This document shows positions 1 to 13,925 of a DNA stretch of 14,169 nt, piece by piece. The translations under genes were made by a program, and so were the position numbers. This DNA comes from a virus (taxonomy: Duplodnaviria; Heunggongvirae; Uroviricota; Caudoviricetes), in IMG/VR virus record IMGVR_UViG_2698536549_000025, positions 1 through 14,169 of that record, one strand, 5' to 3'. The notes under the pieces are model-generated. The model had not been told where the DNA came from, made no database searches, and saw only the letters and a list, made by a program, of their open reading frames with translations. How positions within the stretch are numbered: position 1 is the first letter of the stretch; each line of letters starts with the position of its first letter.

Positions 1-1230
1 ATGAGCAGAGCACTTAACAAACTGAGTGACACACAGCTAAGGAAAATCAACGGCACACCCGCCCAAAAAACAGCCTTTCTTAATGACGGTGGAAACCTGA
101 GCGTCAGGCATTCAACCAGCGGCCTTTTAACCTGGTATTTCACATACAGGGCCGGAACGGGAAGAGGGACACAACCTGAACGCGTTAAGCTGGGAAATTA
201 TCCCGATCTGAGCCTGAAAGCAGCCAGGGAAAAAGCCGCACAGTGTCGCGCATGGCTGGCTGAGGGGAAAAATCCACGCTATGAACTGAATTACACCATG
301 CAGGAAGCGTTAAAGCCTGCAACGGTTGGCGATGCGCTCACCTACTGGCTTGAGTCGTACGCAAAGGAAAAGCGCACAGATTACGAATCACTGAAAAGCC
401 GGATCAATAAAAACATAATCATCAAAATTGGTGCTATGCCGCTGGATAAATGCGAGCTACGGCACTGGCTGGCCTGTTTTGATCAGGTGGCAAAGCGAAC
501 ACCTGTTACTGCCGGATTCTTGCTACAGACATGCAAACAGGCGCTTAAATTCTGCCGTAGGCGGCGCTATGCAATCAGCAACGTTCTGGACGATCTGAAC
601 GTGGCGGACGTTGGGAAAAAACCGGATATAAGCGAACGTGTCTTAAGCACCAAAGAACTGGGCGAGTTATTGCAGGCGCTGGATAAAAAAATATTTTCTC
701 CTTACTACGTCGCGTTAATCCGCCTCCTGATTGTCTTCGGAGCCAGGACGGTAGAACTGAGGTTATCGGAGATCAGCGAGTGGGATTTTACCGAAATGCT
801 ATGGACCGTTCCGAAGGAGCACAGCAAAACGAAGGTTGCAATATTCCGGCCCATACCGGAAGCGATCCTGCCGTTCGTCACGCGGCTGGTGGACCAGAAC
901 AGGCACACGGGCTTATTACTGGGGGAAGTGAAACAGGAGGCCAGCGTATCGCAGTACGGCAGATTAGCGCACAGGAGGCTAAAACACCCTCAATGGTCAT
1001 TGCATGACATCCGGCGCACCTTTACAACGATGCTGAATGATTTGGGCGTGGATCCTCACGTCGTGGAGCAGCTTACAGGTCATCAGATGCCAGGGATGCA
1101 ACGAGTCTATAACCACTCCCGTTATCTCGATGCGAAACGTGATGCGCTGGATATGTGGACGGAGCGGTTAGGGATACTGGCGGGAGCACATGAAAACGTA
1201 ACCACGCTACCAGTAACCAGAATAAAATAA
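1..1230 (+). CDS. int: Tyrosine recombinase / phage integrase (P4-like, with N-terminal arm-binding-type domain)
   Basis: 409 aa. N-terminus LSDTQLRKI...DGGNLSVRHS...GLLTWYFTYR resembles the P4-type integrase arm-binding domain; C-terminus has HDIRRTF (H-x-x-R) and VYNHSRY (candidate Tyr nucleophile). ATG is at base 1, so upstream sequence and attL are not visible. Confidence 0.9.
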   Translation: MSRALNKLSDTQLRKINGTPAQKTAFLNDGGNLSVRHSTSGLLTWYFTYRAGTGRGTQPERVKLGNYPDLSLKAAREKAAQCRAWLAEGKNPRYELNYTMQEALKPATVGDALTYWLESYAKEKRTDYESLKSRINKNIIIKIGAMPLDKCELRHWLACFDQVAKRTPVTAGFLLQTCKQALKFCRRRRYAISNVLDDLNVADVGKKPDISERVLSTKELGELLQALDKKIFSPYYVALIRLLIVFGARTVELRLSEISEWDFTEMLWTVPKEHSKTKVAIFRPIPEAILPFVTRLVDQNRHTGLLLGEVKQEASVSQYGRLAHRRLKHPQWSLHDIRRTFTTMLNDLGVDPHVVEQLTGHQMPGMQRVYNHSRYLDAKRDALDMWTERLGILAGAHENVTTLPVTRIK

Positions 1231-1283
1231 TTTTTTTCGTGTTTTTTCAGTATGCGCATACTGGATAAGTGCACAGATACAAC

Positions 1284-1310
1284 GTGAAACAATGTGCAAC
1301 AACGTGACAC
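1284..1310 (+). repeat. Three 10-bp-phased direct repeats (aCGTGAAac / aTGTGCAac / aCGTGACAc) between int and alpA
   Basis: GTGAA at 1284, GTGCA at 1294, GTGAC at 1304, exactly 10 bp apart; same motif family as the right-end array at 13811-13850. Confidence 0.5.
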
Positions 1311-1419
1311 AATCACGAACAAGAGGCCAAAAAGAATACAGATTTATAAGTTACTGATTTTTATTGGTTAACTGGTTTTTTATACATTAGCGAATTACGC
1401 GTTAAAGCGTGCGAAAAAA

Positions 1420-1450
1420 GGCATAAAACAAGATTTTATGCCTTTGTATT
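1420..1450 (+). terminator. Weak terminator-like hairpin (GGCATAAAA/TTTTATGCC) followed by TTTGTATT
   Basis: Inverted repeat 1420-1442 with a 5-nt loop and a T-rich tail; the stem is AT-rich, so termination efficiency is uncertain. Confidence 0.3.
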
Positions 1451-1540
1451 AACATGAATTTAAATGATTTTATCCTGATTATTCCTCTTTCTGTAAACCA
1501 TACGACATCAACATTTGCCATTCACCACACTAGCGGGAAC

Positions 1541-1570
1541 AATACGACACAATAAGACACCTGATGACTC
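1541..1570 (+). promoter_or_regulatory. Tandem 10-mer repeats AATACGACAC / AATAAGACAC (plus a degenerate third) just upstream of the alpA ribosome-binding site
   Basis: Direct tandem duplication with one mismatch at 1541-1560, ending about 25 bp before the alpA start; candidate regulator binding site in the alpA control region. Confidence 0.4.
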
Positions 1571-1594
1571 TTTAAGAAACGAAAGGGGGCAATA

Positions 1595-11759: not shown

Positions 11760-13404
11760 GTACGCAGAAGACGTAAAAACGGGCAAAATTCCGGCCTGTA
11801 AACGGCTGAAACAGGCCGTTAAACGGTACTTTTCGGACCTTGAAAGCCCCCTTTACACGTTCGATCGTGAGGTTGTGGAGCGGTTTATTGCCTTTTCCAG
11901 GGTGTGCCCGCACGTAAAAGGGCCGATGCGTGGCAGACCCATTGAGCTGGAGCCGTGGCAGCAGTTCGCCTTTGCGTGCATCCTCGGCTTTAAGGTTAAG
12001 GCCACCGGACGGCGCAAATACACGAGCGCCTTTATCGAAGTGCCGCGCAAAAATGCGAAATCCACGACCGCCGCGATTCTGGCTAACTGGTTTCTGATTA
12101 TGGAGAACGGGCAGCAGGATATTTACACCGCAGCGGTGAGCCGTGACCAGGCGCGGATCGTTTTTGATGATGCGCGTCAGATGTGCCTTTTATCCCGACC
12201 GTTACGCAGGCGGGTGAATATTCAGGCCCACAAGGTGATGCACCCGAAAAGCAACAGCCTGTTAAAGCCGCTGGCAGCAAAAGCGGCAACCATCGAGGGT
12301 ACAAACCCCAGCCTTTCCATCGTGGACGAATACCACCTACACCCCGATAACGGCGTTTATTCCGCGCTTGAGCTGGGGATGGGCGCACGTCCCGAAGGGC
12401 TGTTATTTGCCATTACCACATCGGGCAGTAACGTCGTTTCAGCCTGTAAGCAGCACTATGATTATTGCTGCCAGATCCTGGACGGCGAAGAGGTCAACGA
12501 TTCAATTTTTGTACTGATTTACGAACTGGACGACGAAAACGAGGTTGATGATCCGGCGATGTGGATAAAGGCTAACCCTAACATCGATGTTTCCGTGGAT
12601 CGTGAAAAACTGGCCTCAACCATCCAGAAAGCGCGGGGTATTCCGTCGCAATGGGTGGAGATGATGACAAAGCGATTTAATATCTGGTGCCAGGGGGCTA
12701 CCCCGTGGATGGGTAACGGCGCATGGGCTGAGTGTGCCGGAACGTTCACGGAGGAAGATTTACACGGGCAGGAGTGTTACGCGGGGCTGGACTTATCATC
12801 AACCAGCGATATTTCCAGCGTGTGCTATGCCTTTCCGGTCGGTAAAAATATCATGCTGGTTTCCCGTCATTATCTGCCGGAGTTCCAGCTACAGAACCCC
12901 GCCAATAAAAACCGCGCTGTCTATCGCCAGTGGGCTAAAGCGGGCTGGATACGCACAACGCCAGGTGACTGCATTGATTACGACCGGATCAGAGATGACA
13001 TCATGCAGGATGCGGAGAAATTTAATATCAGGCTGGTGGGCTTTGATACGTGGAACGCCACGCATCTCAGGACGCAATTACAGGGGGCAGGCTTTGAGGT
13101 GGAGCCGTTCCCGCAAACCTACCTCAGATTCAGTCCGGCGGCGAAATCGTTCGAAGTTTTTGTTAACCGCAGGGTGATTGTGCATCGTGGCGATCCGGTG
13201 TTGTCCTGGTCGATGAGTAACGTCGTGATGCAGAGTGACGCGAACGCCAATATCAAGCCGAACAAGAAAAAATCACCGAACAAGATAGACCCGAGCGTGG
13301 CGGCGCTGATGGCGTTTGGTACATTCCAGGCAGAGCATGAGGATTTTGCTTTTGATATAAGCGACAGCCACCGCCAGAAACTGGAAGAATTTAGCGGGGT
13401 GTAA
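11743..13404 (+). CDS. terL: Terminase large subunit (Terminase_1-like ATPase/nuclease), apparent TTG start
   Basis: 553 aa. Conserved N-terminus WNKYAEDVKTGKIPACK, Walker A-like VPRKNAKST, and DEYH motif. No in-frame ATG or GTG lies between the upstream stop (11698-11700) and the conserved N-terminal motif, which supports TTG 11743; overlaps terS by 17 nt. Confidence 0.9.
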   Translation: MTAWNKYAEDVKTGKIPACKRLKQAVKRYFSDLESPLYTFDREVVERFIAFSRVCPHVKGPMRGRPIELEPWQQFAFACILGFKVKATGRRKYTSAFIEVPRKNAKSTTAAILANWFLIMENGQQDIYTAAVSRDQARIVFDDARQMCLLSRPLRRRVNIQAHKVMHPKSNSLLKPLAAKAATIEGTNPSLSIVDEYHLHPDNGVYSALELGMGARPEGLLFAITTSGSNVVSACKQHYDYCCQILDGEEVNDSIFVLIYELDDENEVDDPAMWIKANPNIDVSVDREKLASTIQKARGIPSQWVEMMTKRFNIWCQGATPWMGNGAWAECAGTFTEEDLHGQECYAGLDLSSTSDISSVCYAFPVGKNIMLVSRHYLPEFQLQNPANKNRAVYRQWAKAGWIRTTPGDCIDYDRIRDDIMQDAEKFNIRLVGFDTWNATHLRTQLQGAGFEVEPFPQTYLRFSPAAKSFEVFVNRRVIVHRGDPVLSWSMSNVVMQSDANANIKPNKKKSPNKIDPSVAALMAFGTFQAEHEDFAFDISDSHRQKLEEFSGV

Positions 13405-13417
13405 TGAGGTCAGCAGC

Positions 13418-13699
13418 ATGACAGAAGCCGAAATACTGCGATTAATCCGCCGCGTCTCTGGAATCAGCCAGCAGGCTGACGAACAGACCACGCAGCCGGA
13501 CAGCGTGACAGCCGAAAATTATGCGCGTGTTGTTGCTGAGGTGATGCGCCGTGATGGTATCCAGCTTAATGATGCGGATATGCGCGACATACGGATCCGC
13601 GTTCTGGAAATGCTGGCCTACAATCGCCGCGTTGAACTGTATCGGGAGAAGGAGAAAATCACGTACCACTGGAAGAAGCCGGAGCGGTTACGGCGGTAA
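13418..13699 (+). CDS. Hypothetical protein, last gene of the element
   Basis: 93 aa, charged, no recognisable motif; follows terL and precedes the right-end repeats. Confidence 0.5.
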   Translation: MTEAEILRLIRRVSGISQQADEQTTQPDSVTAENYARVVAEVMRRDGIQLNDADMRDIRIRVLEMLAYNRRVELYREKEKITYHWKKPERLRR

Positions 13700-13753
13700 C
13701 TTGTTGATTAAAAGGCGGCTCAATTCTGAGCTGGGTAGCTGACGGCGGTAACT
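13690..13753 (+). repeat. Two exact 12-bp direct repeats ACGGCGGTAACT flanking a small palindrome (GCTCA-N4-TGAGC)
   Basis: Copies at 13690-13701 and 13742-13753; palindrome at 13718-13731. Confidence 0.6.
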
Positions 13754-13810
13754 GTTTTATATTCCCGATAGCGCAAAAATGCGCGGTCGGGCAGAATGAC
13801 CACCACCTCA

Positions 13811-13850
13811 ATCGTGACGGAGAGTGACAACCAGTGACACACCGTGACAA
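13811..13850 (+). repeat. Four 10-bp-phased direct repeats with GTGAC(A/G) core; candidate recombinase arm-type or Xis binding array near the right att site
   Basis: GTGAC at 13814, 13824, 13834 and 13844, exactly one helical turn apart; same motif family as 1284-1310. Confidence 0.5.
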
Positions 13851-13901
13851 AAAGACGGTTTAACCGTTCATTAAAAATCGACGTGATTTTGTGCTTTCCG
13901 G

Positions 13902-13925
13902 ATGACGTGGCCAACGTCATTTTTT
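13902..13925 (+). terminator. Rho-independent terminator at the right edge of the element
   Basis: Stem ATGACGT / ACGTCAT (13902-13908 / 13914-13920) with GGCCA loop, followed by TTTTT at 13921-13925. Confidence 0.6.

Follow-up and report, generated by a model that had tools for sequence, protein, structure and literature searches.

The DNA analyzed here (positions 1 to 14,169 of the IMG/VR virus record IMGVR_UViG_2698536549_000025, all 14,169 nucleotides (nt) of which are referred to as the window) is, with a probability of roughly 93%, the inner part of a capsid-forming phage-inducible chromosomal island (cf-PICI) that belongs to the EcCIEDL933 lineage and is integrated in an Escherichia coli chromosome between allE and allC. 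About 180 bp at each end of the element lie outside the window, which covers the rest. As a close variant of EcCIEDL933, which was published as the prototype cf-PICI from E. coli O157:H7 EDL933 (Alqurainy et al., bioRxiv 10.1101/2022.09.08.507074; He et al., bioRxiv 10.1101/2025.02.11.637232), and an ordinary member of a very common family, the element is real but already known.

All annotated genes are on the plus strand, in the order integrase (int), alpA, a variable zone, RepA, iterons, the single-stranded DNA-binding protein SSB, PerC, and a head and packaging block (Table 1). All 11 SatelliteFinder core components were found by Pfam matches, in canonical order. A preliminary description of this DNA had listed int, alpA, an AAA_25 ATPase with adjacent iterons, SSB, a head module and HNH-TerS-TerL (TerS and TerL being the small and large terminase), and each of these is present, as judged by Pfam matches and, for the iterons, by heptamer count. 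Its further statement that SSB is followed by an uninterrupted head module stands for the head block, which is unbroken, but not for the interval between SSB and capsid, which contains the PerC gene. The reported lack of tail and lysis open reading frames (ORFs) was borne out, with zero ORF matches to tail, holin or lysin families in the window across Pfam, PHROGs, NCBIfam and PADLOC. Every ORF without a Pfam family assignment is 175 residues (aa) or shorter, and there is therefore no space for a tail module. Nor did any ORF match a defence family in these four databases, PADLOC giving no defence system for the accessory zone, and no tRNA gene that could serve as integration target lies inside the window.

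These properties are those expected of a cf-PICI. Such elements measure approximately 10–18 kb (He et al., bioRxiv 10.1101/2025.02.11.637232); the present one spans 14,550 bp from att to att, and the window alone 14,169 bp. An integrase at one end is followed by an AlpA-type regulator, and the element has its own replication module (RepA/AAA_25 and iterons). Five head proteins of its own, recognized by Pfam, are 98.4–100% identical to those of EcCIEDL933, and the morphogenesis genes precede hnh-terS-terL, the proteobacterial order. The forbidden tail, holin and lysin components are absent, the flanks consist of allantoin-pathway genes, and integration is site-specific with att duplication.

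For comparison with the prototype, EcCIEDL933 was located in NZ_CP008957.1 between roxA and phoQ, and proteins were aligned by tblastn. EcCIEDL933 is ordered int, alpA, rep, capsid, protease, portal, connectors, HNH, TerS, TerL, with no tail genes, and the window has the same gene order. Window positions 6780–13708 (6.9 kb) are 97.5% identical to the prototype at the nucleotide level, and nine head and packaging proteins together with a 60-aa ORF are 98.4–100% identical. The near-identity of these proteins to an experimentally tested prototype supports the capsid-forming reading already given in the preliminary description; the database search called for there shows that both the family and the lineage are already described. 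The capsid protein matches PDB entry 9gyi_B over 385 of 385 residues (E=7e-255). After the capsid of EcCIEDL933 itself, the solved capsid nearest in sequence belongs to the gene transfer agent of Rhodobacter capsulatus (6tb9/6tba, E ~1e-46).

The closest capsids in the phage collection are 58–66% identical and come from four records, namely vB_KppS-Ant (16.5 kb) and Pasteurella Pmp8 (15.3 kb), both satellite-sized, a 3.8-kb fragment, and a 106-kb Klebsiella record. Capsids of genuine phages of ~40 kb are at most 40% identical, in agreement with the published finding that cf-PICI genes are only distant relatives of phage genes. The record deposited as 'Escherichia phage vB_KppS-Ant' (LR881103.1, 16,548 bp) is organized as a cf-PICI-like element, in the order TerS-TerL, int, primase, and capsid through an ORF at the HNH position; an ORF annotated as tape measure follows TerL.

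Chromosomal context was established by exact-protein look-ups leading to contigs identical to the window ends, which were compared with the empty site of E. coli K-12 (relatives and comparison loci carry L numbers). L008 is 100% identical to window positions 1–2473 and has glxK and allE on the left, and L017 (GCA_005045285.1) is 100% identical to positions 3924–14169 and continues on the right into allC, allD and the remaining genes of the allantoin cluster. The glxK-allE and allC-allD flanks are 98–99% identical to K-12. The preliminary description had raised tail or lysis genes beyond the window edges, or a missing att duplication, as reasons for doubt; core genes lie on both sides with no tail or lysis genes, and a short repeat brackets it relative to the empty K-12 site. 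The extent proposed there, positions 1–13923, has to be revised, as the window lies wholly inside the element: no direct att repeats occur inside it, and both junctions lie beyond it.

The K-12 attB sequence is AAATATCCCATTTATGAC, attL is AAATATCCCTTTTATCAA, and attR is ATATATCCCATTTATGAC. Apart from one mismatch they share a core of 13 bp, ATATCCC(A/T)TTTAT, which occurs at each junction and a single time at the unoccupied K-12 site (L021:2535-2552). The duplication is observed on the identical relatives, with attL ~181 nt to the left of base 1 (L008:7985-7997) and attR ~188 nt to the right of base 14169; the att-to-att length given above is the sum of the window and the flanks of L008 and L017. 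Just inside both element ends is a tandem motif, GGTGTAGTTAATGGTGTAGTCAAT, the right copy of which lies, with attR, 90–200 nt past the window. We take these tandem motifs to be arm-type integrase sites. A 75-nt imperfect repeat of L001 was considered as an att site and rejected, since comparison with the empty K-12 site places it inside the element; it carries tandem GGTGTAGT(T/C)AAT motifs, and true att cores are short (10–13 bp).

Upon integration, the start codon of allE becomes AAG in place of ATG, in-frame stops lie shortly before it, and gene callers assign allE next to the island a product of 145 or 247 aa, versus 261 aa. The island thus probably inactivates or truncates the allE product, (S)-ureidoglycine aminohydrolase. 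Close relatives occupy at least four attB sites (roxA/phoQ, pntB, dcuC/cspE, and allE/allC), each flanked by core genes, and no tail or lysis genes adjoin the islands at those sites. Six attB sites are given in the cf-PICI paper.

Several points weigh against reading the window as the interior of a functional cf-PICI. Satellite activity of this copy is presumed from the prototype. The replication module is unlike that of the prototype, and induction and replication are assumed. The chromosomal context was pieced together from two contigs, one 100% identical to the left part and the other to the right part, instead of a single verified contig, and cos is placed purely by analogy. In addition, the 74-aa ORF found upstream of the EcCIEDL933 capsid gene is absent, the phrog_2512 gene is frameshifted at a run of nine G, and the DUF4222 gene contains 50 N. 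These last three would also fit a cf-PICI by descent of which this copy is immobile or decaying, through loss of the 74-aa ORF, the split gene, or a lesion at the N run. Such decay is unlikely, however, as none of the 11 core genes is disrupted and the head and packaging proteins share 98.4–100% identity with those of a functional prototype. The 74-aa ORF is also missing from L014–L019, L024, L029, and L032, the same sequence recurs at 100% in independent assemblies (L017 for 3924–14169, L008 for 1–2473), and the affected genes sit in the variable accessory zone.

It is highly improbable that the window is instead the remnant of a defective HK97-like prophage that lost its tail and lysis genes by deletion and is no satellite. 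Its head and packaging genes do belong to phage-derived Pfam families, and RefSeq calls them phage proteins. However, the same intact, tail-less gene set recurs at no fewer than four sites and across 102 or more complete genomes, the left arm is of the PICI int-alpA type, the capsid is no more than 40% identical to those of genuine ~40-kb phages, and the 98–100% identical prototype is mobilized at high frequency as a satellite. A temperate HK97-like prophage would comprise 35–45 kb with tail and lysis genes, versus the 14.5 kb found between core genes. A classical PICI that remodels phage capsids, or a P4-like satellite, has in common with the element the int-alpA arm, the P4-type N-terminus of the integrase, Icd-like genes and an RNA of C4/CI type, and the non-capsid-forming PICI L023 has an identical RepA, but a classical PICI is refuted by gene content and either identity has a negligible chance of being correct: the element encodes its own portal, adaptor, connector, and TerL, the first three of which SatelliteFinder forbids in classical PICIs and the last three of which it treats as specific to cf-PICIs. 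A P4-like satellite would carry Sid, Psu and Delta genes for capsid size and transactivation, an alpha primase and the cos site of its helper P2. Only the integrase N-terminus and the CI/C4-like RNA are shared with P4, and no Pfam, PHROG, or NCBIfam match to P4 Sid, Psu, or Delta was found, P4-specific profiles not having been run.

Table 1. Features of the 14,169-nt window. Percentages are identities to the EcCIEDL933 (EDL933) counterpart.
Feature	Position	Strand	Evidence
Tyrosine integrase, P4-type arm-binding N-terminus	1-1230	+	Pfam Arm-DNA-bind_3 3e-18, Phage_integrase 3e-16
int-alpA intergenic region, presumed alpA control region	1231-1594	.	No conserved ORF; regulatory role inferred from literature
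alpA, PICI activator/excision regulator	1595-1783	+	PF05930 E=5e-18; 98.4%
175-aa ORF, variable gene after alpA	1836-2363	+	No family found in Pfam, PHROGs, NCBIfam
63-aa ORF overlapping the 175-aa ORF	2048-2239	-	Weakly YlcI/YnfO-like: NF041551 E=3e-4, 20.7 bits, cutoff 30
Promoter-like site TTGACA-17-TATTAT, near-consensus sigma-70	2233-2282	+	11/12 consensus match
Icd-like gene 1, 65 aa	2372-2569	+	NCBIfam phage_ICD_like 5e-18; phrog_1743; 90.8%
a1/b1 targets of C4 RNA	2600-2649	+	Rfam RF03163 45.5 bits, just under gathering score 46.7; E=6.5e-10
C4-type antisense immunity RNA	2717-2804	+	Rfam RF01695 71.5 bits, gathering score 45
Icd-like gene 2, 57 aa	2857-3029	+	PHROG matches; alignment to P1/P7 icd
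phrog_2512 gene, two ORFs (3019-3279, 3252-3485)	3019-3485	+	Match profile halves 1-77 and 78-154
77-aa gene, phrog_2196	3478-3711	+	PHROG E=1.5e-31; conserved in relatives
DUF4222 gene with internal run of 50 N	3717-3929	+	PF13973 in relatives
RepA-type replicative helicase/initiator (AAA_25), 465 aa	3926-5323	+	PF13481 E=4.7e-44
Iteron cluster, probable replication origin	5325-5512	.	7 AAGTGAG: 6 direct, 1 inverted
Small ORF, start uncertain, 80-89 aa	5508-5777	+	91.6%; called in relatives
101-aa ORF, phrog_27268	5774-6079	+	PHROG E=1.9e-69; no tblastn match in EcCIEDL933
SSB	6089-6499	+	PF00436 E=6.5e-16; 97.1%
PerC-family transcriptional activator	6510-6758	+	PF06069 E=2.6e-34
Terminator-like hairpin AGCCGGAGCAATCCGGCT-TTTT, single copy	6781-6798	+	Repeat D16, duplicated in L001
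HK97-fold major capsid protein	7062-8219	+	PF05065 E=1.6e-61; 99.2% (gene 1786)
Prohead serine protease S78	8259-8831	+	PF04586 E=4e-48; 98.4%
Portal	8833-10044	+	PF04860 E=2.3e-90; 99.5%
Head-tail adaptor (head completion/closure)	10041-10379	+	PF05521 E=1.1e-22; 100%
gp6-like head-tail connector	10376-10672	+	PF05135 E=5.6e-12; 99%
HNH endonuclease, terminase partner	10672-11112	+	PF01844 E=1.8e-8; 99.3%
60-aa ORF	11096-11278	+	100%
Probable cos region, 60-aa ORF to terS	11279-11402	.	Inferred from vB_KppS-Ant record ends
Small terminase, P27 family	11403-11759	+	PF05119 E=1.3e-23; 99.2%
Large terminase, ATPase and nuclease domains	11743-13404	+	PF03354, PF20441; 98.4%
93-aa ORF, phrog_1561, last island gene	13418-13699	+	PHROG E=1.5e-55; 93.5%
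Non-coding right arm toward attR	13700-14169	.	81-aa minus-strand ORF broken in L001, L002 and L003

Within the packaging module, the adaptor also matches PDB entry 2kz4, a 'putative head-tail adaptor' solved by nuclear magnetic resonance (E=4.4e-68). The HNH endonuclease is essential for transfer of the prototype. By position, the 60-aa ORF appears to be 'hypothetical gene 1792', a numbering deduced from the capsid being gene 1786 and from gene order; mutation of gene 1792 severely reduces EcCIEDL933 transfer. Cohesive ends have been reported for cf-PICIs (He et al., bioRxiv 10.1101/2025.02.11.637232). The linear vB_KppS-Ant record ends at the homologue of window positions ~11290–11316 and starts ~22 nt before terS, and by analogy cos would lie between the 60-aa ORF and terS. 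At the right end, an 81-aa hydrophobic ORF (13924–14169, minus strand) was rejected as a holin or accessory gene, as it matched no family and is disrupted by frameshifts or stops in L001, L002, and L003.

The window begins at the integrase ATG. The integrase is 92.4% identical to that of EcCIEDL933 at the amino-acid level (tblastn), and its gene shares 99.8–100% nucleotide identity with copies that have integrated at allE; the block at positions 1–2048 is 91% identical to EDL933 in nucleotide sequence. Mutation of alpA in EcCIEDL933 abolishes induction and transfer. The region after alpA varies among cf-PICIs (He et al., bioRxiv 10.1101/2025.02.11.637232), and the 175-aa and 63-aa ORFs that occupy it here are both called in relative L010. 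An inverted repeat with arms GTACGTACGTA and TACGTACGTAC, read from the sequence and a cmscan alignment, overlaps the promoter-like site at 2233–2282, making this a candidate operator and promoter of the accessory and replication operon. The site adjoins the start of the divergent 63-aa ORF, and the ORF and inverted repeat may constitute a small repressor with its operator over that operon.

The phrog_2512 gene is split at the G9 run (3241–3249) and occupies the position of ant in the P1 immI locus. Relatives have 7–11 G in this run, with G7 and G10 giving an intact ORF of 154/155 aa, and the G9 run could be either a slipped-strand on/off switch or a homopolymer sequencing error. An exact-protein look-up of ORF 2881–3279 returned no record. 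The N run in the DUF4222 gene (3786–3835) is a masked stretch or an assembly gap, with no evidence of deletion; relatives have 137 nt there and encode a 99-aa product, compared with an apparent 70 aa here.

Between alpA and the phrog_2512 gene, the window contains a cassette of the type found in P1 and P7 immI, comprising in order a1/b1, a C4 RNA, a2/b2 over the icd ribosome-binding site, and an icd-like ORF. The C4 RNA is homologous to c4 of P1 and P7, with ~80.5% nucleotide identity to the c4 locus and its own a′ heptamer, CUACAGU, and the a1/b1 sites have exact complementarity to a′ and b′. The a2 target, ACUGUAGGA, lies directly before the ATG of Icd-like gene 2 and covers its ribosome-binding site. 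No second C4-like RNA was detected upstream of Icd-like gene 1, even at E values up to 10. A 169-aa ORF (2520–3029) was not accepted as one gene, since it runs across the C4 RNA and resembles Icd only in its last 57 codons, its PHROG matches being confined to residues 116–165. RefSeq annotations of relatives show a long 'Icd-like' ORF that covers the RNA gene.

Covariation was examined in the cassettes of P1, P7, the window and four E. coli islands. In all seven, the a′ loop is a perfect complement of its own a1 and a2 over at least 7 nt, and its heptamer differs in each; the b′ site has two variants, which co-vary with b1 and b2. Positions 2590–2870, containing the targets and the RNA, are 100% identical in the classical PICI of strain EH41. 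Two differences from P1/P7 immI are apparent. The a′ heptamer is CGUAAGU in P1 and CACAAUC in P7, with a1 and a2 changed to match, and ant is absent from the window, which has the phrog_2512 ORF in its place. The C4-like RNA system is also comparable with the CI RNA immunity of P4.

C4/IsrK-type immunity RNAs have already been reported in the 'dynamic zone' of Gram-negative PICIs (PMC10111431), and the cassette is therefore a refinement and not a discovery. We suggest, tentatively and as the less probable outcome, that the C4 homologue gates an early operon running from the icd-like genes and phrog_2512 on to repA, its private heptamer matching its two targets. If so, the RNA would hold the island silent before induction, and would represent one of many C4 specificities that PICIs and cf-PICIs exchange as a cassette; the novelty would lie in a functional link to cf-PICI replication control, together with the diversification of specificity.

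The index of the assembly collection lists the exact RepA protein in 1463 blocks, and L023 carries it too. AAGTGAG occurs seven times in the whole window, versus 1.18 expected (0 of 200 shuffles reached seven), and all copies lie inside the 190 nt directly after the helicase stop. The position of this cluster makes it the probable origin, at which RepA would replicate the island.

PerC/Pch proteins regulate the locus of enterocyte effacement (LEE) virulence island in enteropathogenic and enterohaemorrhagic E. coli. In every cf-PICI relative examined, the perC gene immediately precedes the head operon, and its product is, from this position, a candidate activator of that operon; cross-talk with host virulence regulation is conceivable. 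Both EDL933 and L001 have two copies of the terminator-like hairpin 354 nt apart, flanking the 74-aa ORF, whereas window positions 6759–7061 lack that ORF. This arrangement suggests loss of the 74-aa ORF by recombination between the hairpin repeats.

Much is established about how the prototype functions. HK106 and HK446 induce EcCIEDL933 through alpA. Each packaging gene is needed for transfer of the island and not for that of the phage, and the island can be transferred without the capsid genes of the phage but not without its tail genes. The prototype's capsid, a T=4 HK97-fold shell of 47.5 nm, encloses ~15.5 kb. Filled, tail-less heads are released, and swap experiments indicate that adaptor and connector set the fit of the tail, the prototype fitting HK106 (bioRxiv 10.1101/2025.02.11.637232).

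Because its head and packaging proteins are 98–100% identical to those of EcCIEDL933, the element in the window is predicted to behave likewise, being induced by a helper, making small capsids of its own in which only island DNA is packaged, and relying on phage tails. The helper, either a prophage or an infecting phage, would switch on alpA, and AlpA would bring about excision by the integrase and expression of the island genes. RepA would then replicate the circle from the adjacent iteron origin, assisted by the island's own SSB. A late operon, possibly activated by PerC, would supply capsid, protease, portal, adaptor, and connector, which would assemble into small T=4 HK97-fold heads. HNH, TerS, and TerL would cut the island's own cos just upstream of terS, with only island DNA being packaged. 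The filled, tail-less heads would be completed by helper tails, lysis being left to the phage. Tails of the HK106-type siphovirus are predicted, as the adaptor is 100% and the connector 99% identical to those of the prototype. In this scheme, induction, T=4 assembly, cos packaging, tail specificity, and the role of PerC are carried over from the prototype experiments or deduced.

At least 80% of the window is present in 102 of 5426 complete E. coli genomes, and none of the complete genomes in the collection matches it over more than 94% of its length. SatelliteFinder lists 969 cf-PICIs, with the complete (Type A) form in 13% of Enterobacteriaceae genomes. It is established for the prototype that cf-PICIs combine tail-less, DNA-filled heads with the tails of different phages, and thereby move DNA across species. 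The window adds nothing in kind to this biology and can be filed as a known satellite. It is a clean example of modular exchange, in which a near-identical head and packaging module is combined, within one lineage, with a different replication module, a 92%-identical integrase of other target (the allE start codon), and an extra antisense-RNA cassette.

In comparison with known systems, HK97 and the HNH-dependent cos siphoviruses share with the window the HK97-fold capsid, S78 protease, portal, gp6-like connector, and HNH/P27-type TerS/TerL. The window differs from HK97 in having no tail, lysis, or lysogeny-switch genes, and the prototype capsid is T=4, while that of HK97 is T=7.

Classical Gram-negative PICIs, such as EcCICFT073 and the EH41 island at cspD/clpS, resemble the window in their int-alpA arm, dynamic zone, and replication zone. 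In contrast, their late genes are limited to capsid-remodelling or TerS-type functions; they lack portal, adaptor, connector, HNH, and TerL, and need phage heads. Two such islands, L023 (CP027452.1), with the same RepA, and L035 (EH41, NZ_CP045213.1), with the same C4/icd core, have lambda-E-type capsid and head-decoration genes. They show that left-arm modules exchange freely between PICIs and cf-PICIs; swapping of the integrase-proximal half between the two is already documented (PMC10111431).

Other RepA-type cf-PICIs occur in complete E. coli genomes, for example OkiPb01685 (NZ_AP042523.1 1263007-1278714), CP146507.1, and CP016628.1. RepA is exact in L024 and L028, and its region is 97.4% identical in nucleotide sequence in L001. 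Iterons, SSB, PerC, and the head and packaging genes are shared, with 97.4–99.7% nucleotide identity over most of the window. These islands differ in their attB sites (roxA/phoQ, pntB, dcuC/cspE), in an integrase gene of ~92% nucleotide identity, and in the accessory genes between alpA and repA.

EcCIEDL933 remains the closest characterized system. The window element is at allE/allC, whereas the prototype is at roxA/phoQ. The prototype has a 710-aa DUF927 protein in place of RepA, with the first 122 aa shared at 68% identity, and a 74-aa ORF in the perC-capsid interval that the window lacks. The window in turn has the extra 101-aa ORF upstream of SSB and the extra P1-type C4 RNA/icd cassette, and its element measures ~14.5 kb versus 15.4–15.5 kb for the prototype. 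The element is a mosaic sibling of the type member of its family.

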